From assembly GCA_030696265.1 (NCBI GenBank), contig JAUYSO010000017.1, positions 136,368 through 168,807 on the forward strand: a DNA stretch of 32,440 bases, in the 5' to 3' direction. Positions 5,097 to 21,268 of the stretch are shown piece after piece. The notes below the pieces were generated by a model that saw only the letters and a program-made list of their open reading frames with translations, made no database searches and was not told the DNA's origin. A program made the position numbers and the translations under genes. Source of the stretch: Myxococcales bacterium (GTDB lineage Bacteria > Myxococcota > Myxococcia > Myxococcales > Myxococcaceae). Each line of letters starts with the position of its first letter. Positions within the stretch are counted from its first letter, which is position 1.

Positions 5097-5099
5097 CCC

Positions 5100-5774
5100 A
5101 TGCGGCTCGTCTTCGCGCGACTGCTCAAGCCGTTTCGCTGGCGAAGCCCACGGGCCACCGCGCGCATGTTGATGGCGTTCGCGCGCGCCGAGCGCTCCAG
5201 CTTCTTCGACATGATGGAGGCGGCGAACACCACGAGCGATCTCTCGCGCCGCGCCAAATACCTGAGCCACGCCGTCGATGAGAATCGCCACGCGCAGATG
5301 TTCTCGCTGCGTGCGGTGGAGCTCGACCCCACGCTCGCCTTCGACGACTCGGTGGCGCGCGCCGACTTCGAGCACTTGTTCACGCGACTGGGAGAAGCGC
5401 GCTTCCTGGCCTTCGTGCACCTCGGAGAGAAGCGTGGCCGCGCGCAGATGAAGCTGTTCCGCGATGAGCTCGCCGCGTTCGAAGGCACGGCCCGCGCGGA
5501 CACGAAGACGAAAGCGCTCCTCGACGCGGTGATGGTCGATGAAGCGGTCCACGAGTCGTACACGCGGGAGTTCCTTTCCACGCTTGCACCCGATGCCAGC
5601 GAACTGCGCAGCGCGCGGTTCTGGGAGCTTCGTCGCGGGTGGCTGCGGTGGGGCGCGGCGTCGTCAGGGGTGTTGTTCACGCTGACGATGTGGACGCTCT
5701 ACGTGTTGATGGCCCCACTGGCGCTGATGGAGCAGCTCAAGGCTCCGAGCGCTTCAGGGTGGCGAGCACCGTAA
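5100..5774 (+). CDS. Ferritin-like di-iron-carboxylate four-helix-bundle protein with a C-terminal transmembrane helix. Function unknown.
   Basis: The ATG lies 3 nt after the TGA of the SGNH gene, so the two are translationally coupled. Two ExxH motifs (DENRHAQMF and DEAVHESY), each with an upstream Glu (FFDMMEAAN, HLGEKRG), match an E…ExxH…E…ExxH di-iron site. The C-terminal hydrophobic segment is GVLFTLTMWTLYVLMAPLALM. Confidence 0.55.
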   Translation: MRLVFARLLKPFRWRSPRATARMLMAFARAERSSFFDMMEAANTTSDLSRRAKYLSHAVDENRHAQMFSLRAVELDPTLAFDDSVARADFEHLFTRLGEARFLAFVHLGEKRGRAQMKLFRDELAAFEGTARADTKTKALLDAVMVDEAVHESYTREFLSTLAPDASELRSARFWELRRGWLRWGAASSGVLFTLTMWTLYVLMAPLALMEQLKAPSASGWRAP

Positions 5775-5780
5775 CGGCGG

Positions 5781-6656
5781 TCAGGGCGGCGCTTCGAGCT
5801 TCAACGCGCCGAGCAGCTGCTCCCACCCGCGCTCGAGCTCGGGCCCGGCCTCGTTCGGACCGGTCGCCTCGAGCGTCAACGCCGGCGCTCGGCTCGAGGG
5901 CGCACCGGCGTGCACCCACTCGAAACGAAGCGTCTTCACGGCGGCAGGCGTGGTGAGCGTCATCACCAGCTCCGTCCCGCGCAGGCCAGCCACGGTACGG
6001 GAGCGCTCACGGAGAACCTGGAGCGTGCCGCCGAGCTGCTCCACCTCACGCGCGATGTCGGCTGGCGCTCGTTCTCGGGCGACGACGTTCGAGCTCACGA
6101 TGAGGCTCAGGCGAGCGCGAGCCGGGCCGACGAGCGAGAGCCGGGCGTTCTCGACCTGGGAGACGCGCTGAAACGCACCGTGCTCGACCCCGAACCCATC
6201 ACGACTGTGCGGCGTGTAGACGCGCACCAATTCGCGCAGCAGCTTCTCGGCGATGGGCAGCTTGCCCTCGGGAAACTCGCGGCGCAGCCACAGCACGTGG
6301 TCGTCGTACGGCTTCATCAGCTCGATCAGCAGATCGTTCCCACTCATGAAGGTGACCGCGCGGCCTGCGTCGCCCCAATCGAACCGCTCCCGCTCGGCGC
6401 CGGCAGGGAGCGCGGCGAGGTGACGTGCCCACCGCTCGTCGGGCGACAGCTCCAGCGGCTCGGTCCACGCCTCGGTGCCGGTGAGCACCGTCTCACTGCT
6501 CTCGCGGGTGAAGCCGGGTGGCACGCCGACGCGCAGGCGGCCGAGCGGCAACAGCGACGGCGCAGCGACAGGTTGCACGTCCACGTTCGGAGCAAAGAGA
6601 GGTCGAGGGCTGGCGCAGCCCACCGCGATCGTGGCGACCATGAGCCAGTGCCTCAC
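5781..6656 (-). CDS. Lipoprotein of unknown function.
   Basis: The N-terminus MRHWLMVATIAVGC carries a lipobox (AVG|C). The amino-acid composition is balanced. It converges on the di-iron gene with a 6-nt gap. Confidence 0.7.
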   Translation of the reverse strand: MRHWLMVATIAVGCASPRPLFAPNVDVQPVAAPSLLPLGRLRVGVPPGFTRESSETVLTGTEAWTEPLELSPDERWARHLAALPAGAERERFDWGDAGRAVTFMSGNDLLIELMKPYDDHVLWLRREFPEGKLPIAEKLLRELVRVYTPHSRDGFGVEHGAFQRVSQVENARLSLVGPARARLSLIVSSNVVARERAPADIAREVEQLGGTLQVLRERSRTVAGLRGTELVMTLTTPAAVKTLRFEWVHAGAPSSRAPALTLEATGPNEAGPELERGWEQLLGALKLEAPP

Positions 6657-6731: not shown

Positions 6732-8432
6732 ATGAGCGCCGTGCTCGGCATCTCGGCGAACTACCACGACGCGGCGGCGGCGCTGGTCGTCGACGGCCAG
6801 CTCATCGCGGCGATGCAGGAGGAGCGCTTCTCTCGCATCAAGAACGATCCCTCGTTGCCGATCGCCGCCGCGCGCGCGTGTCTGGCGATGGCGAAGCTCG
6901 ACGTGAAAGACCTCACGCACGTCGTCTTCTACGAGAACCCGTACCGCAAGCTCGAGCGCGTGCTCACGATGATGCTGCGCTCCTTCCCTGGCTCCTTGCG
7001 CCAATTCCCGCGCGCCATCGCGTCGCAACTGAGCGGCAAGGTGCAGGTCCTCGACGAACTCTCGAGCCGCCTCGGGGTTCCGCGCGACCGCATCAGCCAT
7101 CGCGAACACCACGAGTCACACGCCGCGAGCGCGTTCTTCTGCAGCCCCTTCCCTCGCGCCGCCGTGCTCACCGTCGACGCCGTCGGCGAAGAGACCTCGA
7201 CCGCGCTGTGGCTCGGCGAAGGCACCACGCTCACGCTGCTGGAGCGCATCACCTTCCCCCACTCGCTTGGCCTGCTCTACTCGGCGCTGACGGCGTGGTG
7301 CGGCTTCGAGGTGAACGAGGGCGAGTACAAGGTGATGGGCCTCGCCGCGTTCGGCACGCCGCGCTTCCGCGCCGAGTTCGAGAAGCTCGTCACGCTCGCG
7401 CAAGACGGCAGCTTCGAACTCCACCTCGAGTACTTCGACGCGCACGCGAACACCGAGGTCGGGTTCTCCTCGAAGCTCGAGGCCCTGCTCGGACCGCGTC
7501 GCATGCCGGGTACGCCGTGGAACTTCTCCGACGCCGCCGATCGACGCTTCGCCGACGTCGCGTGCACGCTCCAGGCAGTGCTGGAGGACGCGATGTTGGG
7601 GCTCGCGAGCCGAGCGAAGGCCCGCACGCAAGCCGACGCGCTCTGTCTCGCTGGAGGCGTCGCGCTCAACGCCGTGTCGAACGCCCGCCTCGCGCGCAGC
7701 GCCGGTTTTCGTGACGTCTTCGTTCAACCTGCCGCAGGCGACGCGGGTGGAGCACTCGGTGCCGCCCTCCTCGGGGCCCTCGACGCGCGCACGCCGCGAG
7801 TCACTCCGATGGAGCACAGCGCGTGGGGCCTTCCTGTCTCGGCCGATGACGCACGCAGCATCGCGACGTCGCTCGGCCTCAAGATGACTTCGCTCGCGAA
7901 CCCCGCGACCGACGTGGCCGCGCTGCTCGCAAAAGGAGACGTCGTCGCCTTCGTGCAAGGCCGCTTCGAGTGGGGCCCGCGCGCGCTCGGCCATCGTTCG
8001 TTGCTTTCGCTCCCGACGCCGCTCGCCGTGAAGGAGCGCCTCAACCGCGTCATCAAACGCCGCGAGCCGTTTCGCCCGTTCGCGCCCGCGGTGCTCGAAA
8101 GCGACGCCTCACGCTTCTTCGGTCCCTTCGCGTCACGCCTCGCGCCGTTCATGGTGACGGTGGCCGACGTGAGAGACGACGCGAAGCCCGTGCTCGAGGC
8201 CGTCACGCACGTCGATGGCACCGCGCGCGTGCAGACCGTGCTTCCCTCCACACCCTTCGGAGCCCTCATCGACGCGGTCGGCCGCCAGACGGGAACACCC
8301 GTGGTGCTCAACACCTCACTCAACGGGAAGAGCGAGCCCATCGTCGCGTCGGTCGCTGACGCGTTCGCGTTCTTTCTCGGCCACTCCGCCGACGCGCTGG
8401 TCGTCGAGGACGTGCTCATTCGCAAGTCGTGA
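6732..8432 (+). CDS. Carbamoyltransferase of the NodU/CmcH/TobZ family (O-carbamoyltransferase).
   Basis: The N-terminus MSAVLGISANYHDAAAALVVDGQLIAAMQEERFSRIKNDPSLP is the conserved start of this family. The metal-binding motif HHESHAASAF is present. A GGVALN-type ATP-binding region follows later. The ORF-track entry 5910..8432 is an artefactual 5' extension that overlaps the minus-strand lipoprotein gene. Confidence 0.9.
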   Translation: MSAVLGISANYHDAAAALVVDGQLIAAMQEERFSRIKNDPSLPIAAARACLAMAKLDVKDLTHVVFYENPYRKLERVLTMMLRSFPGSLRQFPRAIASQLSGKVQVLDELSSRLGVPRDRISHREHHESHAASAFFCSPFPRAAVLTVDAVGEETSTALWLGEGTTLTLLERITFPHSLGLLYSALTAWCGFEVNEGEYKVMGLAAFGTPRFRAEFEKLVTLAQDGSFELHLEYFDAHANTEVGFSSKLEALLGPRRMPGTPWNFSDAADRRFADVACTLQAVLEDAMLGLASRAKARTQADALCLAGGVALNAVSNARLARSAGFRDVFVQPAAGDAGGALGAALLGALDARTPRVTPMEHSAWGLPVSADDARSIATSLGLKMTSLANPATDVAALLAKGDVVAFVQGRFEWGPRALGHRSLLSLPTPLAVKERLNRVIKRREPFRPFAPAVLESDASRFFGPFASRLAPFMVTVADVRDDAKPVLEAVTHVDGTARVQTVLPSTPFGALIDAVGRQTGTPVVLNTSLNGKSEPIVASVADAFAFFLGHSADALVVEDVLIRKS

Positions 8433-8435
8433 GCG

Positions 8436-8609
8436 ATGCTCTCGCCCGTGCTGTCCGTCCGAACGCTCAGAGACCTCGTCGGCCACTTCGCGAAGCAGAA
8501 CAGGCTCGTCCTGCTCCCGCTCCTCGTGGTGCTGTTGCTCGCGGCGGTGCTGCTCGTGCTGACCCAGGGCCTCGCGTACGTCACGCCCTTCGTCTACGCG
8601 CTCTTCTGA
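8436..8609 (+). CDS. DUF5989/SxtK-like small membrane protein of 57 aa. It is not in the ORF track because it is shorter than 60 aa.
   Basis: The ATG is 3 nt after the carbamoyltransferase stop. The translation is MLSPVLSVRTLRDLVGHFAKQNRLVLLPLLVVLLLAAVLLVLTQGLAYVTPFVYALF. This fits the DUF5989 pattern: a basic N-terminus, one TM helix, and a conserved LTQG…PF(I/V)Y(A/T)LF C-terminus. Proteins of this type typically sit next to carbamoyltransferases. Confidence 0.65.
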   Translation: MLSPVLSVRTLRDLVGHFAKQNRLVLLPLLVVLLLAAVLLVLTQGLAYVTPFVYALF

Positions 8610-8719
8610 AGGCGAGCTTCGAAGCCACACCTGTGACGGCTGGCGTCACGAAGCCCCACGACAACCATCCGGCTTCTGGCCATGGAGCGTTGGCAAGGCC
8701 TGTGCTTCGTTCCGCGCTC

Positions 8720-10033
8720 ATGAAAACTCCAGCCCTGCTCCTGCTCTCCAGCGCGCTGCTGCTGTTCGCCTGCCCGCCTCCGCCTGGCACCTGCGCGACG
8801 ACCGGTACTGGCTCCATCGCGGTGACGTTCGCGGGCCTGCCCGCAGGCACGGACGGCACGGTGACGCTGATGGGCCCGACGTCGCAGACGCTGACGATGG
8901 GCCAGACGGTGATGGTGGGCGCGGGGACCTGGGCGGTCTCAGGTGGCCTCGTCACCGTCAGCGATCCGCTCGTTCGAACCGTCTACGCCGCGCGTGCGTC
9001 GGCGCCGAACTTCTGCCTCGTGAAGGACGCCACGCAAGCGGTCACGGTGACGTGGACGAAGGTCGCCACCAGCAACCGCCTGTGGGTCGGCAACAGCTCG
9101 GGCGGCATGGGCAGCACGCACGCCTTCGACTCGGCGAGCCTCGCCACCACGGCCACGGTCACCTCGTCGTGGAACGCCAACCTCGCAGCGAGCGGCTCGA
9201 CCGCCTTCGACAAAGAAGGAAACCTCTGGGCGCTGGGCAACACGACGGTGGACCCGTTGATCGCCCGCTTCCCAGCCGAGGGCTTCGCGACGCCTGCCGC
9301 GCCGATGGCCGACCGCCGCATCGAGGTGGCCGGCGTGAGCTGTTTCCCGCGCGCCAGCGCCCTCGCCTTCGACAAGAACGGCAACCTCTTCGTGGGCTCG
9401 AGCTGCAAGCGTGAAGTCTACAAGCTGCCGGCGGCGTCGCTCGATGGCTCGAGCACCGTCACGCCCTCACTGACGTTGACCGGCTTCATGGCGGTCTCGG
9501 GCCTGGCCTTCGACAAGGACGGCAACCTCTGGGTCTCCGACTCGTCGACCGAGGAGCTGCTGCGCTACGACTTCGGGTCACTCGACGGCGCCTCGGCAAC
9601 GGCCACGCGCCGGGTGAAGGCCCGCAAGTCAGACCAGCCAGCCGACCCCTCTGCGCTGAAGCCTGACGCGCTGGCGTTCGACAAGGACGGGAACCTGTGG
9701 AGCTACGACTTCGGCCTCAACCTGGTGTTCGCCGTCCCCGCCGCGGAGCTCCCCGGCACCGGTCCCCGGTCGGCGACGCCGCTGGTGCGCATCTCGCTCC
9801 CCGTGAGCGCGGTGCTCGAAGGGCTCGCGTTCGATGAAGGTGGCGGGCTGTGGCTCCCGTACAGCGCGGGCAACCTCGCTCGGCTGGCTCCGGCACAACT
9901 GACGGTGAGCACCGGCTCGGGAGCCCCGACGGTGCCCGACACCATCATCACCGGCTCGTCGCTCGGCAGCGCGCAGGGCCCCGCCTTCTACCCGGCAGCG
10001 AAGGGCACGCCGCTGTTCCACGCGTTGCCGTAG
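8720..10033 (+). CDS. Lipoprotein with an NHL/SGL-type beta-propeller fold of unknown function.
   Basis: The N-terminus MKTPALLLLSSALLLFAC carries a lipobox (LFA|C). A propeller-blade motif recurs at least five times: AFDKEGNLW, AFDKNGNLFV, AFDKDGNLWV, AFDKDGNLW and AFDEGGGLW. The ORF-track start at 8429 is an Arg/Pro-rich extension that overlaps the DUF5989 gene. Confidence 0.75.
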   Translation: MKTPALLLLSSALLLFACPPPPGTCATTGTGSIAVTFAGLPAGTDGTVTLMGPTSQTLTMGQTVMVGAGTWAVSGGLVTVSDPLVRTVYAARASAPNFCLVKDATQAVTVTWTKVATSNRLWVGNSSGGMGSTHAFDSASLATTATVTSSWNANLAASGSTAFDKEGNLWALGNTTVDPLIARFPAEGFATPAAPMADRRIEVAGVSCFPRASALAFDKNGNLFVGSSCKREVYKLPAASLDGSSTVTPSLTLTGFMAVSGLAFDKDGNLWVSDSSTEELLRYDFGSLDGASATATRRVKARKSDQPADPSALKPDALAFDKDGNLWSYDFGLNLVFAVPAAELPGTGPRSATPLVRISLPVSAVLEGLAFDEGGGLWLPYSAGNLARLAPAQLTVSTGSGAPTVPDTIITGSSLGSAQGPAFYPAAKGTPLFHALP

Positions 10034-17497: not shown

Positions 17498-17507
17498 ACG
17501 TCTCCAT

Positions 17508-18101
17508 TCAGTCGCCGCGCCTGGTGAGCGTCTCGACCATGAGCCCACAGGCGGCGAGCGCGAGCTGATAGCGGCGCAGGAGGTGCGGGTCGTCCCGCAA
17601 CGCCGCAGCGAGGTCGTGCCGATGGGCGACGGACTTGAGGACGCTGGCCGCGGCCTCTGCCATCTCGACGTAGCCGAGCGGAAACGGCGCCCAGTCGGGG
17701 CGGCGCTCCTCGGCGCGAGGCGGCGGTTGCGCGCGCGCAGGCTCAGCCCGTGGAGCCTTCTCACCGAACACCATCGTCGACGACGGCGCCGAGCGCTGCG
17801 ACGTGGTGGTGAGGAAGTCGACGGACTGGATCTCCGACGTGCAGGCGGTGCCCACCGAGAGCCGCTTCCCAATCCAATCCAACGCTGATTGCGCGTAGAG
17901 GCTCTGGCCATCGAGCTGCGGAGCGGAGTCTTCGTAGCGCTCACCAGCGGGCTCGGTGCGCGTCAAGACGGTGCAGCGGCGGTCGGCCCCTTCGGTCTGC
18001 ACTTCGAGCTCGTAGGTGCTGTTGGCCGTGCGAATTCGGTACACCCGCCACTTTTCGGATCGCCTCGTCGTGGCTCCGAACACCATCGTCGCTCCTGCCA
18101 T
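17508..18101 (-). CDS. Hypothetical protein.
   Basis: This is the internal Met (MAGATMVFGATTRRSEKWRVYRIRT…) of the ORF-track entry 17508..18224. The upstream 41 codons are Arg/Gly-rich junk. The composition and codon usage are plausible and there are no recognisable motifs. It converges on the DMT gene and diverges from the rSAM operon. Confidence 0.45.
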   Translation of the reverse strand: MAGATMVFGATTRRSEKWRVYRIRTANSTYELEVQTEGADRRCTVLTRTEPAGERYEDSAPQLDGQSLYAQSALDWIGKRLSVGTACTSEIQSVDFLTTTSQRSAPSSTMVFGEKAPRAEPARAQPPPRAEERRPDWAPFPLGYVEMAEAAASVLKSVAHRHDLAAALRDDPHLLRRYQLALAACGLMVETLTRRGD

Positions 18102-18306
18102 TGGCCGTCTCCCGGGGTGTTGGCCAGCTCGAGCGCTGGCGGGACGAGCCAGTGCAACTCTGACGCCTGTGCCATGTCGCCCGCGCCCGAGCAGCACGTC
18201 GAGGCGACCGAGCTGGCTTCCCAAGCAGGCGGATCATCTGCATCGAGACGGTGGCAGCAGAATTGCTCTCGAGCTTCGCCACACCGGCCGGAGGGAGCCA
18301 CCCATC

Positions 18307-18672
18307 ATGTCGTCTCTGTCGAAGTGCCCAGCGTGTTCAGGCGTCGTCCCCGTTTCACTCTCCGAATGTCCCCACTGCGAGGGACCGCTCACGCCGAGGT
18401 CGTCGCTCGGCAGGCTGGCGATGGGCCTGCTCGGAGGACTCGGGGCCTCGATGACGCTGATGGCCTGCTACGGGGCGCCTGCGACGGGCTGCCGGTCCGT
18501 CAGTGAGACGCTCCCCGACGGAGGCGTGACCAGCACCTTCCGCTGCCCGGGTGACCTCGTGAACCAGCCCGACGGTGGCACGACGGTCTTCACCGACGAC
18601 AGCGGCGCGCCCTCCGACGCCGGCGCTTCGGACGGCGGCTCACGAGACGGCGGCGCTGACGGCGGGCCCTGA
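18307..18672 (+). CDS. Small Cys-rich protein of 121 aa: double CPxC zinc-ribbon, a hydrophobic helix, and an acidic Gly/Ser/Asp-rich tail with further Cys. Candidate substrate of the downstream rSAM.
   Basis: The ATG is preceded by GGAGGGAG about 9 nt upstream. The translation is MSSLSKCPACSGVVPVSLSECPHCEGPL…LAMGLLGGLGASMTLMACYGAPATGCRSVSETLPDGGVTSTFRCPGDLVNQPDGGTTVFTDDSGAPSDAGASDGGSRDGGADGGP. The ORF-track entry 18016..18672 includes an Arg/Pro-rich junk extension at the 5' end. Confidence 0.6.
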   Translation: MSSLSKCPACSGVVPVSLSECPHCEGPLTPRSSLGRLAMGLLGGLGASMTLMACYGAPATGCRSVSETLPDGGVTSTFRCPGDLVNQPDGGTTVFTDDSGAPSDAGASDGGSRDGGADGGP

Positions 18673-18682
18673 GGCACCGCCC

Positions 18683-19909
18683 ATGACGCGTCGACAAGAC
18701 CTCTCGCAGGCACACCACCCGGCCTACGTCGTGTGGGAGCTCACGCTGGCGTGCGACCAACCGTGCACGCATTGCGGCTCACGCGCCGGCGAGGTGCGTG
18801 AAGGCGAGCTGTCGACGCAGAAGGCCCTGTCGGTCGTGCAGGAGCTCGCTGCCATGGGCACGCGTGAAGTCGTGCTCATCGGTGGCGAGGCGTACCTGCA
18901 CCCGGGGTTCCTGGAGATCATCGCGGGGCTGAAGGCCGCCGGCATTCGGCCGGTGCTCACGACGGGAGGGCGCGGCATCGATCGCGCCCTCGCGTTCAAG
19001 ATGGCGGGCGCGGGGCTGTACCAGGCCTCCGTCTCCATCGATGGCCTCGAGCCGACGCACGACCTGATGCGCGCCGCCCGAGGAAGCTTTCAATCGGCCA
19101 CCGCCGCGATGGGCTTCATGCGCGAGGCCGGCATCGTGGTGTCGGCGAACACCAACGTGAACCGCCTCAACCTGGGCGATCTCGAAGACCTCTTCGAGCA
19201 CCTGCGAGCACAGGGCATTCACGCGTGGCAGGTGCAGATCACCGCGCCGCTCGGCCGCGCTGCCGACCGGCCCGCGATGCTCCTCCAGCCGTGGGACTTG
19301 TTGAACGTCGTGCCGCGCGTCATCGCGCTCAAGAAGAAGGCCTGGGCCGAGTCGCGCATCGCCGTGATGGCCGGGAACAACCTGGGGTACTTCCACCCCG
19401 AGGAGCCGGTGCTCCGTTCGTTGCCCGAGCACCCCGAAGACGCGTGGCGTGGCTGCAACGCGGGCAAGTTCGTGATGGGCATCGAAGCGAACGGCGCGGT
19501 GAAGGGCTGCCCCTCGCTGCAGCCGTCGTACATCGGCGGCTCGCTGAAGGACTCGACGTTGAAGCAGGTCTGGGACGAGGCGCCACAGCTGGCGTTCGCG
19601 CGCGCGCGCACCGTCGACGACCTCTGGGGCTTCTGCCGCACGTGCCCGTTCGCGCAGGAGTGTCTGGGCGGCTGCACCTTCACCGCGCACTCGGTGCTGG
19701 GTCGCCCGGGGAACAACCCGTACTGCTACTTCCGCGCGCGTGCGCAGCAGAAGAAGGGCGTTCGCGAGCGGCTGGTGTTGCGGGAAGCAGCGCCGGGACA
19801 GCCGTTCGACAACGGCCGCTTCGAGGTCGTCGAAGAGCCGTTCGACGCCGTCGATGTGAAGCCGCCGACCCCGCGCGAGCTCGTGAAGAAGCGCGCGCCA
19901 ACCGTCTGA
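18683..19909 (+). CDS. Radical SAM enzyme with a C-terminal SPASM domain; PqqE/MftC/anSME-like peptide- or protein-modifying maturase.
   Basis: The ATG is 10 nt after the stop of the small Cys-rich gene. The N-terminus reads YVVWELTLACDQPCTHCGS, giving CX3CX2C in the same context as PqqE-type enzymes. A GGE-like VLIGGEAYL SAM-binding segment is present. The C-terminus has CNAGKFVMGIEANGAVKGC…CRTCPFAQECLGGC, i.e. C-x11-G-x5-C followed by CX2CX5CX3C, the auxiliary-cluster signature of a SPASM domain. Confidence 0.9.
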   Translation: MTRRQDLSQAHHPAYVVWELTLACDQPCTHCGSRAGEVREGELSTQKALSVVQELAAMGTREVVLIGGEAYLHPGFLEIIAGLKAAGIRPVLTTGGRGIDRALAFKMAGAGLYQASVSIDGLEPTHDLMRAARGSFQSATAAMGFMREAGIVVSANTNVNRLNLGDLEDLFEHLRAQGIHAWQVQITAPLGRAADRPAMLLQPWDLLNVVPRVIALKKKAWAESRIAVMAGNNLGYFHPEEPVLRSLPEHPEDAWRGCNAGKFVMGIEANGAVKGCPSLQPSYIGGSLKDSTLKQVWDEAPQLAFARARTVDDLWGFCRTCPFAQECLGGCTFTAHSVLGRPGNNPYCYFRARAQQKKGVRERLVLREAAPGQPFDNGRFEVVEEPFDAVDVKPPTPRELVKKRAPTV

Positions 19910-19927
19910 CCTGTTCCAGGAGTCACC

Positions 19928-21268
19928 ATGTTCCGTCTTCACCCGCGCTGGCTGCTCGGACTGCTGTTGCTCGCCGCCTGTGCGCCGCCCGCCCCCGACC
20001 CCGTCGTCACGCTCAACGGCGTCGCGAGTGGCGCTCCAGTGAAGCTCGGCGAAGTCTCGGCCTGGGACATGGAAGACGGCCTCAGGGCGCAGCTGAGTCT
20101 GGTCTCGTCGAGGAGCACGGTGACCTGCACTCGCGATGGCGCCGCCGACCCGTGTCTGCGCACCACGACAGGAGAAGACCGGGTCGACCTGTCCTGGCCC
20201 CGCACGAAGCTGGGCAGCGAAGAGACCACGGTCGTCGTGTTGGTCGACGGCGTCGAAGCCGGGCGCTGGGTCGTCTCACGCTCCATCGTCGACCTCGGCC
20301 TCACGGTGTGCGCGGCGAACACGAGCGCTGAAGATGATGGGCTCCCGCTGGACCGCTGCAAGGCGCTGAACCCGTTCGGTGACCTCGAGCTGCCAATCGA
20401 CCGAACCGACGCGGTGCTGATCAAGCGTGCGCGCTTCAGCGTTCGCAGTGGGGAGACGACGGTGAAACGAATCAGCGTCGTCTCTCACGGCGACGACGAG
20501 AAGGGCGGGCTCGGCGGCCTCCTGCCCTTCTTGAAGCTCATGCCGGTGACGGCAGAGACGTCGGCGCTGCTCGAGCTCGACACGCGGGCCAACGTGACGG
20601 TGGGAACCCGAGCCCTGAGCTGGCCGGCTGCCTCCGCGACGGGCCGTACGGTTCGCGACCTCGACCCCACCCGGGCTCCGGTGCGGGTGCGCATCGGGTC
20701 GCCGGTGGAGATCTCGCGGAGCATTCAAGCCATCGCGGAGCCCGCGACGCTGATCGGCTTCCGCGACGAGGCCGGCATCCTCACGCTGACGTCGTCGTTG
20801 CCCGCGCAGCTGGAGCCCTCGGCGCCCACCGGCCTCACGGTCGTCATGAGCCCGAAGGCCGTCGGAGCCCGCTCCGTCTGGCCGCGGCTCACCGTTCGTG
20901 GCTCGACGGGCGAGTGGACCGACCGCATCCCCTTCGCCATCGAGGGGCTCGCCGCGACCGATTGCAGGCTCAAGGCCTCTGACGTCAACGTTGGCTCGGC
21001 AGTCGTGGGCGAGACGCGCATCGCCCGGCTTCAGGTGCGCAACACCGGAACCGGAGCGTGCACGAAGCTGCGCGTGCGGCCGTTGCCTGCCGGGCTCGGG
21101 CTCGAGTCGAGACCGATTCCCGCGCCCGGCGCGATGGCCGAGTGGACTCTGTCGTTCACTCCGCGGACTGTGGGTCCGCAGGTCGTGTTGCTCGAAGCCG
21201 ACTTCGATGACAGCCAGCCGTCGTTCGCCGATCTCACCGTTCGCGTGGAAGCGACCGTCACCCGGTGA
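19928..21268 (+). CDS. Lipoprotein of unknown function with a beta-sandwich-like C-terminus; third gene of the rSAM operon.
   Basis: An AGGAG RBS lies 5 nt upstream of the ATG, and the gene starts 18 nt after the rSAM stop. The N-terminus MFRLHPRWLLGLLLLAAC carries a lipobox (LAA|C). The C-terminal region (…TDCRLKASDVNVGSAVVGETRIARLQVRNTGTGACTKLRV…) looks like an ASH/choice-of-anchor-type beta-sandwich. Confidence 0.75.
   Translation: MFRLHPRWLLGLLLLAACAPPAPDPVVTLNGVASGAPVKLGEVSAWDMEDGLRAQLSLVSSRSTVTCTRDGAADPCLRTTTGEDRVDLSWPRTKLGSEETTVVVLVDGVEAGRWVVSRSIVDLGLTVCAANTSAEDDGLPLDRCKALNPFGDLELPIDRTDAVLIKRARFSVRSGETTVKRISVVSHGDDEKGGLGGLLPFLKLMPVTAETSALLELDTRANVTVGTRALSWPAASATGRTVRDLDPTRAPVRVRIGSPVEISRSIQAIAEPATLIGFRDEAGILTLTSSLPAQLEPSAPTGLTVVMSPKAVGARSVWPRLTVRGSTGEWTDRIPFAIEGLAATDCRLKASDVNVGSAVVGETRIARLQVRNTGTGACTKLRVRPLPAGLGLESRPIPAPGAMAEWTLSFTPRTVGPQVVLLEADFDDSQPSFADLTVRVEATVTR

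Follow-up and report, generated by a model that had tools for sequence, protein, structure and literature searches.

A conserved gene pair in Myxococcota encoding a predicted tyramine splicease-like radical SAM/SPASM enzyme and its probable zinc-ribbon substrate

The 32,440-nt stretch of DNA analyzed here (the window; G+C about 69%), from contig JAUYSO010000017.1 of a Myxococcales bacterium, carries on its forward strand three closely spaced open reading frames (ORFs), which lie where a preliminary description of this DNA had put them. The first (18307-18672), preceded by the ribosome-binding site GGAGGGAG and represented elsewhere by homologues adjacent to relatives of the same enzyme, encodes a 121-aa zinc-ribbon protein. 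The second (18683-19909), whose ATG lies 10 nt past the stop of the small ORF, encodes a 408-aa radical S-adenosylmethionine (rSAM)/SPASM enzyme, and the third (19928-21268), 18 nt past the rSAM stop and behind an AGGAG ribosome-binding site, encodes a 446-aa lipoprotein with the lipobox LLLAAC. Based on comparisons with related loci and families, we favor, with moderate confidence, the reading that the conserved unit is a two-gene system of Myxococcota, in which the rSAM enzyme would be a cytoplasmic PlpX-like tyramine splicease (an “X protein”) that works without a Y protein or one carrying a recognition element (RRE) for peptides made by ribosomes and then modified after translation (RiPPs), and the small protein would be its ribosomal substrate.

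The rSAM motif CX3CX2C of the enzyme is formed by C24, C28 and C31 (nt 18752-18775), and its SPASM cysteines (C258-x12-G-x4-C276, C318-x2-C-x5-C-x3-C331 and C348; nt 19454-19726) make up a complete set of seven; the preliminary description was right about the completeness of this set but was one residue off in its spacing, given there as C-x11-G-x5-C. The Pfam domains PF04055 (65 bits) and PF13186 (27 bits) both score over their cut-offs. The rSAM core begins at about residue 14, and neither an N-terminal RRE domain nor a signal peptide was found on the protein. Among its 25 best NCBIfam matches, two models stand apart: TIGR04103 (nif11-class peptide radical SAM maturase 3), with 426 bits over residues 14-390 against a cut-off of 725, and TIGR03913 (GDL motif peptide-associated maturase), with 374 bits against a cut-off of 592 (591.75). 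All other rSAM/SPASM families reach at most 143 bits, namely AhbD (143 bits, cut-off 500), the “rSAM/lipoprotein system” models TIGR04133/TIGR04134 (128, cut-off 425), MftC (TIGR03962; 113, cut-off 265), PqqE (TIGR02109; 77.5, cut-off 381), SkfB (73, cut-off 300) and StsB (72). The models for anSME (TIGR03942) and QhpD are absent from these 25 matches, and a Nostoc relative discussed below scores 59 bits on the former.

Since the window enzyme falls under both equivalog cut-offs, it is not a TIGR04103 or TIGR03913 protein proper. For calibration, a true member of each family was scored on the model of the other: the TIGR04103 protein reaches 414 bits on TIGR03913, and the TIGR03913 protein 435 bits on TIGR04103. 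These cross-scores are close to the scores of the window enzyme, which argues that it represents a co-equal third branch of one clade. Judged by these profile scores, the enzyme is a sister branch to TIGR04103 and TIGR03913 and belongs to the wider splicease clade, clearly apart from other SPASM families. A search of 1.84 billion cluster representatives with the enzyme returned 512 at E <= 1e-30, and ten scanned among the nearest non-myxobacterial ones (41-47% identity) give the same double match to TIGR04103 and TIGR03913. Among solved structures none is close, the best matches, SkfB (72 bits) and PqqE, both being distant. The enzyme had been likened beforehand to PqqE, MftC or anSME; it groups with none of these, nor with QhpD or the sactipeptide and ranthipeptide synthases. 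We rejected a PqqE or MftC identity because the scores are far under the cut-offs and neither PqqA/PqqD nor MftA/MftB neighbors are present, and an anSME identity on the model score and the lack of a sulfatase in the window. Clustering with anSME, named at the outset as an outcome that would refute the preliminary description, was not observed, which counts in its favor.

To place the gene pair in its wider setting, we use 80 loci with relatives of the rSAM enzyme (60-98% identity, one genome per species; loci are numbered with the prefix L). Their titles are nearly all Myxococcota, the exceptions being metagenome-assembled genomes (MAGs) titled “Proteobacteria” or “delta proteobacterium” and a Solirubrobacteraceae-labelled MAG (L044). 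Both Myxococcia and Polyangia are represented, with the cultured genera Corallococcus, Citreicoccus, Pyxidicoccus, Archangium and Vitiosangium, and Cystobacter was met in a separate search; the nearest relatives of the window are Myxococcota MAGs with rSAM enzymes of 95-98% identity. Small-protein partners were located by tblastn and then by motif searches in the loci that tblastn missed. A homologue of the small protein adjoins the rSAM gene in 76 of the 80 loci, an association that is far beyond chance. The suggestion that the small protein is the enzyme's partner and substrate is thereby strengthened: it is the co-conserved partner of the rSAM enzyme and probably its substrate. The small gene lies upstream of the rSAM gene on the same strand in some clades and is divergent in others. 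In a neighbor-joining tree of the rSAM enzymes, gene orientation and the variants of the small protein's core motif described below each fall into coherent clades, which indicates that enzyme and partner have co-diverged. Two tandem precursor genes occur in four loci (L068, L011, L036 and L039); the precursors of L068 (about 5097-5900) have two to three XYG sites with a repeated D-A-Y-G, as in multi-site spliceotide precursors. Several genomes carry two paralogous rSAM/small-protein pairs from different clades (L001/L024, L011/L059, L022/L023 and L007/L049). A profile search with the small protein collected at least 376 clusters; all source-named ones are called “hypothetical protein” except for one stray JGI label, and all those with a named organism come from Myxococcota.

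All-against-all clustering of neighboring ORFs revealed no third conserved neighbor among the 80 loci, and hence no Y (PqqD-like) protein. Because binary spliceases that lack a Y protein are documented (PMC11414181), a Y gene is not needed. The lack of a dedicated peptidase or exporter nearby, already remarked upon in the preliminary description, stands. Its three-gene unit does not: tblastn found the 446-aa lipoprotein solely in L002 and L004 of the 80 loci. In the close relatives, the slot between the rSAM gene and msrBA is hypervariable and holds three unrelated lipoprotein genes (446, 600 or 192 aa) or nothing; in L001, whose rSAM enzyme is 98% identical, it contains an unrelated 600-aa Gly-rich lipoprotein (7221-9023), in L003 a 192-aa lipoprotein (7289-7867), and in L006 and L007 it is empty. 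The gene is probably co-transcribed in the window, and given its two occurrences and the variable slot, the supposed triad is better described as a pair with a passenger. Its product was also thought of as a possible substrate, which the poor co-conservation speaks against; moreover, it has 0 Tyr and therefore no XYG. Its only family match is a weak one to choice-of-anchor D (26 bits, cut-off 45).

The surroundings of the pair bear on another explanation, in which the enzyme would be an AhbD/NirJ-like rSAM protein that modifies tetrapyrroles and is tied to haem biosynthesis. AhbD is the third-best model, and hemE or hemE-hemH-hemY adjoins the pair in a single clade of Polyangia and in one Pyxidicoccus locus, but AhbD scores only about a third as high as the splicease-clade models and stays far under its cut-off, and the adjacency is limited to 5 of the 80 loci and a separately fetched Labilithrix locus (L081), with none in the window. 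We regard this explanation as extremely improbable. The hemE gene is found just downstream of the rSAM gene in L039, L040, L045 and L053 and at 4398-5444 in L025, and the hemE-hemH-hemY series at 11044-14350 in L081.

The small protein itself points to a modification site. Counts for its core motif, hydrophobic region (h-region), tail and cysteines refer to 78 homologues, and column conservation to an alignment of 52 diverse members that was cut nine residues beyond the motif and has a mean column identity of 33%. In the window protein, a zinc ribbon (C7-x2-C10 ... C21-P-H-C24; 18325-18378) is formed by CPAC at residues 7-10 and CPHC at residues 21-24, and further cysteines follow at C54, C62 and C80. 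Arg/Lys residues and an uncharged h-region of 17 residues, L37-A53 (18415-18465), lead into a conserved core, T50-L-M-A-C54-Y55-G56-A-P58 (18454-18480), within which the predicted splice site C-Y-G occupies 18466-18474 and which overlaps a lipobox, LMA|C. An acidic, presumably disordered tail rich in Asp, Gly, Ala and Pro, containing C62 and C80 and ending in DGGP (18475-18669), is predicted to be periplasmic or surface-exposed. The sole invariant columns of the alignment are C7, C10, C21, C24, Y55 and G56; conservation is 90% or more at T50 and A53. The zinc-ribbon pattern is present in 78/78 homologues, and the core T-L-M-A-X-Y-G-x-P is kept with T in 72, L in 62, M in 59 and A in 75 of them, the X residue being C in 68, L in 5, I in 2, P in 2 and A in 1, with Pro at +2 after the core Gly in 63. 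Exactly one YG occurs in 75 of the 78 proteins, and Y55 is the only tyrosine of the window protein. The tails are variable and acidic, with a net charge whose median is -7, and contain 17% Gly, 15% Asp, 13% Ala and 10% Pro. Neither NCBIfam nor Pfam has a family for the window protein; PF11617, a MopE-like putative metal-binding motif, matches the tails of P0304, P0306, P0308, P0314 and other homologues but not the window tail.

These features could also be explained if the small protein were a membrane anchor or regulator of the rSAM enzyme, acting through a cytoplasmic zinc ribbon, with the real substrate encoded elsewhere. The zinc ribbon and the transmembrane segment are indeed the best-conserved global features of the family, and the enzyme has neither an RRE domain nor another conserved neighbor. 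Nevertheless, the Tyr-Gly pair, found past the hydrophobic segment on its trans side, shows the same invariance as the zinc ligands; tandem gene copies, more than one XYG site per precursor and hypervariable tails are traits of precursors; and in both sister families the partners are XYG-bearing peptides. A purely anchoring or regulatory role seems to us very unlikely.

The connection to tyramine splicing comes from the enzyme clade. Spliceases take a tyramine equivalent (C8H9NO, 135.06 Da) out of Tyr in an X-Y-G motif, and PlpX, the founding tyramine splicease, has been assigned to the SPASM subclass IPR026482 (PMC11002830). The cyanobacterial type I enzymes require a small Y protein, and many types described later are binary, consisting of enzyme and precursor (PMC11414181). 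The X of XYG is variable, as spliceases tolerate various residues (PMC9811515), and the tags used for protein engineering with PlpXY include PIRPLYGLPI and the engineered GYG form PIRPGYGLPI. Our stand-in reference is a TIGR04103 enzyme annotated by PGAP on a plasmid of Nostoc (853 bits on TIGR04103), whose locus has the published A-X-Y order (Nif11 precursor, rSAM enzyme, 71-aa ORF). The window enzyme shares 46% identity with it over 385 aa (E = 7e-127). The C-terminus of the Nostoc precursor reads ...AIAGG/RGSIALYGLPPELF, with a core that contains ALYGLPP, and of the myxobacterial cores MACYGAP, MALYGVPC and AIYGLPPC, the last two nearly match it. In the sister family TIGR03913, one to three DUF1843 “GDL” peptides are encoded upstream of the rSAM gene (80 metagenomic loci and annotated Azospirillum and Aureibacter plasmids) and carry, roughly twelve residues ahead of the GDL motif, a conserved Tyr, followed by Gly in 42 of 53 peptides, by Ala in 10 and by Met in 1; a residue other than Gly also follows the Tyr in the Azospirillum example (L163, 2552-2746; sister-family loci L082-L161). 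If TIGR03913 enzymes are spliceases, the XYG rule would therefore be looser there. The window protein has a “GDL” of its own (P-G-D-L-V, residues 80-84), which we considered as a link to the GDL peptides and dismissed as coincidental, as it is PGDI in P0121 and absent in others. Taken together, enzyme clade and invariant motif make tyramine splicing a reasonably probable assignment for the window enzyme.

The position of the splice site raises the question of how the small protein is exported. Of 81 small proteins, 74 fit a PS51257-like lipobox pattern, the family h-region has a median of 19 uncharged residues, and two to four Lys/Arg residues occur in the ten residues before it in 68 of the 78 homologues. 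In each of the ten proteins with a residue other than Cys at X, a separate lipobox-like Cys is kept 3-16 aa upstream (VSSSC, ASSC, AIAC, VVAC, AAAC and others). Furthermore, the number of cysteines from the lipobox Cys onward is odd (1, 3, 5 or 7) in 77 of the 78, a pattern suggestive of a single Cys that is lipidated or modified and of others that can pair up in disulfides. Both the retained separate Cys and the odd parity speak for a genuine lipobox rather than for a side effect of recognition by the enzyme. On these grounds a lipoprotein fate appears plausible, although we hold it a little less firmly than the splicing assignment. An earlier expectation, that the product would be a module of the membrane or periplasm and not a RiPP that diffuses, likewise seems likely.

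The same cysteines are central to two further alternatives. In the first, an enzyme of the splicease clade would act at the same X-Y-G but carry out another radical reaction on Tyr, such as a Cys-Tyr or Tyr-backbone crosslink, or a side-chain cleavage without re-ligation. The enzyme is under both curated cut-offs and 41-47% identical to the nearest other members of the clade, X is Cys in most homologues, CYG is not known as a reported native splice site, and the odd parity would fit a first Cys used in a crosslink. Against this, tyramine excision is the only characterized chemistry in the clade, the Y-G-x-P core is close to known splice tags, and X is L, I, A or P in ten proteins whose nearest Cys is 3-16 residues off, in a lipobox context, and this makes it less likely that a Cys-Tyr link is obligatory. 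Another reaction on Tyr, carried out by a diverged member of the clade, is a serious alternative, if a rather unlikely one. In the second, the enzyme would be a thioether synthase, like those of sactipeptides, ranthipeptides or QhpC, and would join the tail cysteines to the Asp/Glu/Gly-rich tail or modify the lipoprotein, much as the preliminary description had envisaged with Cys-Asp/Glu bonds. An rSAM/SPASM enzyme beside an acidic, Cys-containing peptide would suit such a role, as would SkfB being the closest solved structure by sequence. The tail cysteines are not conserved, however, and 13 of the 78 homologues have none beyond the lipobox Cys; where present, their even number suggests disulfides, and it is the Tyr-Gly that is invariant. 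In addition, the thioether-synthase models give only 73 (SkfB) and 72 (StsB) bits on the window enzyme and 57 (PapB) on the Nostoc relative, QhpD is missing from the 25 best matches, the enzyme has no N-terminal RRE, and the lipoprotein is neither co-conserved nor endowed with a Tyr. Thioether formation consequently strikes us as quite improbable.

Several observations weigh against the splicease-substrate pair that we favor and should be considered together. The link from the window to splicing runs through the PGAP-annotated Nostoc homologue, a published InterPro assignment and the correspondence of IPR026482 to TIGR04103. The predicted reaction of the myxobacterial clade is assigned from sequence, and because the window enzyme is under both curated cut-offs (426 < 725 and 374 < 592) it could catalyze a different Tyr-directed reaction. 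We know of no report of a native CYG splice site, and a free thiol beside a ketoamide may behave unexpectedly. The partner is missing from 4 of the 80 rSAM loci, and the second-copy paralogue at L059 (5669-5986) has CSG in place of CYG; the rSAM enzyme of L059 is the longest branch of the tree, and this pair may be decaying or repurposed. An AlphaFold2 model of the small protein has a mean predicted local distance difference test score of 51 and is uninformative. With respect to export, the lipobox Cys is at residue 54, outside the 15-35 of standard lipoprotein rules, a position accounted for by the roughly 30-residue zinc ribbon ahead of the signal sequence; a folded zinc ribbon in the n-region of a signal peptide is unusual, and T-L-M-A-C could be conserved purely for enzyme recognition.

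Starting from the observed co-conservation, homology and motif anatomy, we infer a possible course for chemistry, processing and function. The rSAM enzyme would bind the nascent or pre-export precursor in the cytoplasm, with the zinc ribbon and/or the hydrophobic helix serving as leader or activator, a role filled elsewhere by a leader helix or by PlpY. Its 5'-deoxyadenosyl radical chemistry would then excise the tyramine part of Tyr55 and join the Tyr carbonyl carbon to the carbonyl of Cys54, as the enzyme clade and the invariant XYG suggest. The modified precursor would be exported N-in/C-out, lipidated at its lipobox Cys and freed of its zinc-ribbon signal peptide by signal peptidase II; the lipobox, the length of the h-region, the positive-inside charges and the parity of the cysteines point to these steps. 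The outcome would be an acidic lipopeptide of 50-70 residues whose electrophilic ketoamide sits at the N-terminal, lipidated residue or, in the variant clades, 3-16 residues further on. In characterized spliceotides the ketoamide inhibits Ser/Cys proteases, and by analogy the most likely role would be that of a membrane-tethered, protease-inhibiting or carbonyl-reactive surface module; this part is speculative. In its boldest form, this proposal would have the backbone spliced at the lipobox itself, with the zinc-ribbon signal peptide acting as a RiPP leader, and would define an unrecognized class of membrane-anchored, ketoamide-headed acidic lipopeptides, which we consider possible but doubtful.

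The rest of the window offers an ordinary setting: atpD, an HDOD protein, an EamA transporter, msrBA, a KAS III-like protein, an amidohydrolase, a desaturase, rimK, a YkuD transpeptidase, cydAB and a carbamoyltransferase. In the roughly 800 nt upstream of the small gene (17498-18306), the only ORF is one of 238 aa on the minus strand (17508-18224) with low G+C at third codon positions and no Pfam match, and neither an Rfam match nor a sigma-70-like promoter was found there; a promoter/terminator scan and an Rfam scan of the window also returned nothing. A 291-aa lipoprotein-like ORF on the minus strand (5781-6656) has a weak match (26 bits) to Tli4_C, the type VI lipase effector immunity protein family.

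What makes the pair attractive is that a splicease-like enzyme goes together with one stereotyped substrate in two classes of myxobacteria, among them the cultivable genera Corallococcus, Archangium, Cystobacter and Pyxidicoccus. If our reading is correct, spliceotide chemistry would have a testable native setting, the cell envelope, and a new type of leader in which a zinc ribbon lies within a signal peptide, and protein engineering would have one more splicease that is independent of Y and comes with a short, well-defined tag (TLMACYGxP). With a beta-amino-acid ketoamide placed on or beside the lipidated N-terminus, the pair would also bear on lipoprotein processing, the myxobacterial surface and predation biology. 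Were splicing to occur at the lipobox, spliceotides would gain their first setting and function in native cells, such as the tethered inhibition of proteases or covalent capture at the cell surface, and the modification could gate processing by signal peptidase II and Lnt. Should the splicing prediction fail, the invariant Tyr-Gly would still mark an uncharacterized rSAM modification site.

Spliceotides were discovered via heterologous expression. Splicease chemistry was reportedly published in 2018 by Morinaka et al. in Science and expanded in 2022, and Scott et al. 2022 (Chem 8:2659) are reported to have predicted 939 splicease systems in 189 genera. Our survey of the open literature, with Scott et al. 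2022 outside its scope, found no paper on myxobacterial spliceases, on TIGR03913 or TIGR04103, or on the names of these models; the myxobacterial clade may already be catalogued among the Scott et al. systems.

The window pair is best compared with the type I systems PlpA/PlpX/PlpY and PcpAXY of Pleurocapsa (PMC11414181), which have an rSAM/SPASM enzyme of the same clade, an adjacent ribosomal X-Y-G-x-P substrate and, in some loci, multiple precursors or sites. Unlike them, the window system has no Y (PqqD-like) protein, no GG cleavage site, no exporter and no epimerase, its leader is a zinc ribbon with a signal peptide rather than Nif11/NHLP, and X is mostly Cys in myxobacteria where theirs is Met or Leu. 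In their two-component architecture, the binary type II systems of Rheinheimera, RhaX/RhaA and RcsX/RasX (PMC11414181, PMC11626197), are the same, with a single XYG site modified, and there a leader helix of the precursor upstream of the site is thought to activate the enzyme; we liken them to the window pair by description only. Their products are small soluble disulfide peptides from RiPP multi-gene clusters, whereas the window precursor resembles a pre-lipoprotein and the pair lies among housekeeping genes. The TIGR03913/DUF1843 systems of Azospirillum, Burkholderia and Aureibacter have a sister rSAM enzyme (41-44% identity), with a C-terminus about 90 aa longer than that of the window enzyme, and one to three small genes immediately upstream with a conserved Tyr-Gly/Ala. 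Those partners are helical, have a GDL..MK motif and lack a zinc ribbon, signal peptide and lipobox, whereas the window family lacks the conserved GDL..MK helix.

Beyond the clade, bufferins (MNIO), QhpC/QhpD and the anSME-sulfatase systems also rely on a cytoplasmic metalloenzyme that modifies a precursor before general export, with no dedicated protease or transporter. The logic is the same as that proposed for the window pair, but enzyme families and chemistry differ, and to our knowledge none of them modifies a lipobox Cys or uses a zinc-ribbon n-region. In the TIGR04133/TIGR04134 systems described by Haft, an rSAM/SPASM enzyme is paired with a small putative lipoprotein; the pairing is alike, but both the clade and the partner family are different. 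The preliminary description did not recognize a described family in these genes, yet the enzyme falls in the PlpX-type splicease clade, and a splicease with an XYG precursor is an already known kind of system, that of the spliceotides. What appears to be new in Myxococcota is the zinc-ribbon leader, the signal peptide with a lipobox, the placement of the splice site on the lipidation Cys, and the housekeeping-like distribution across the phylum.

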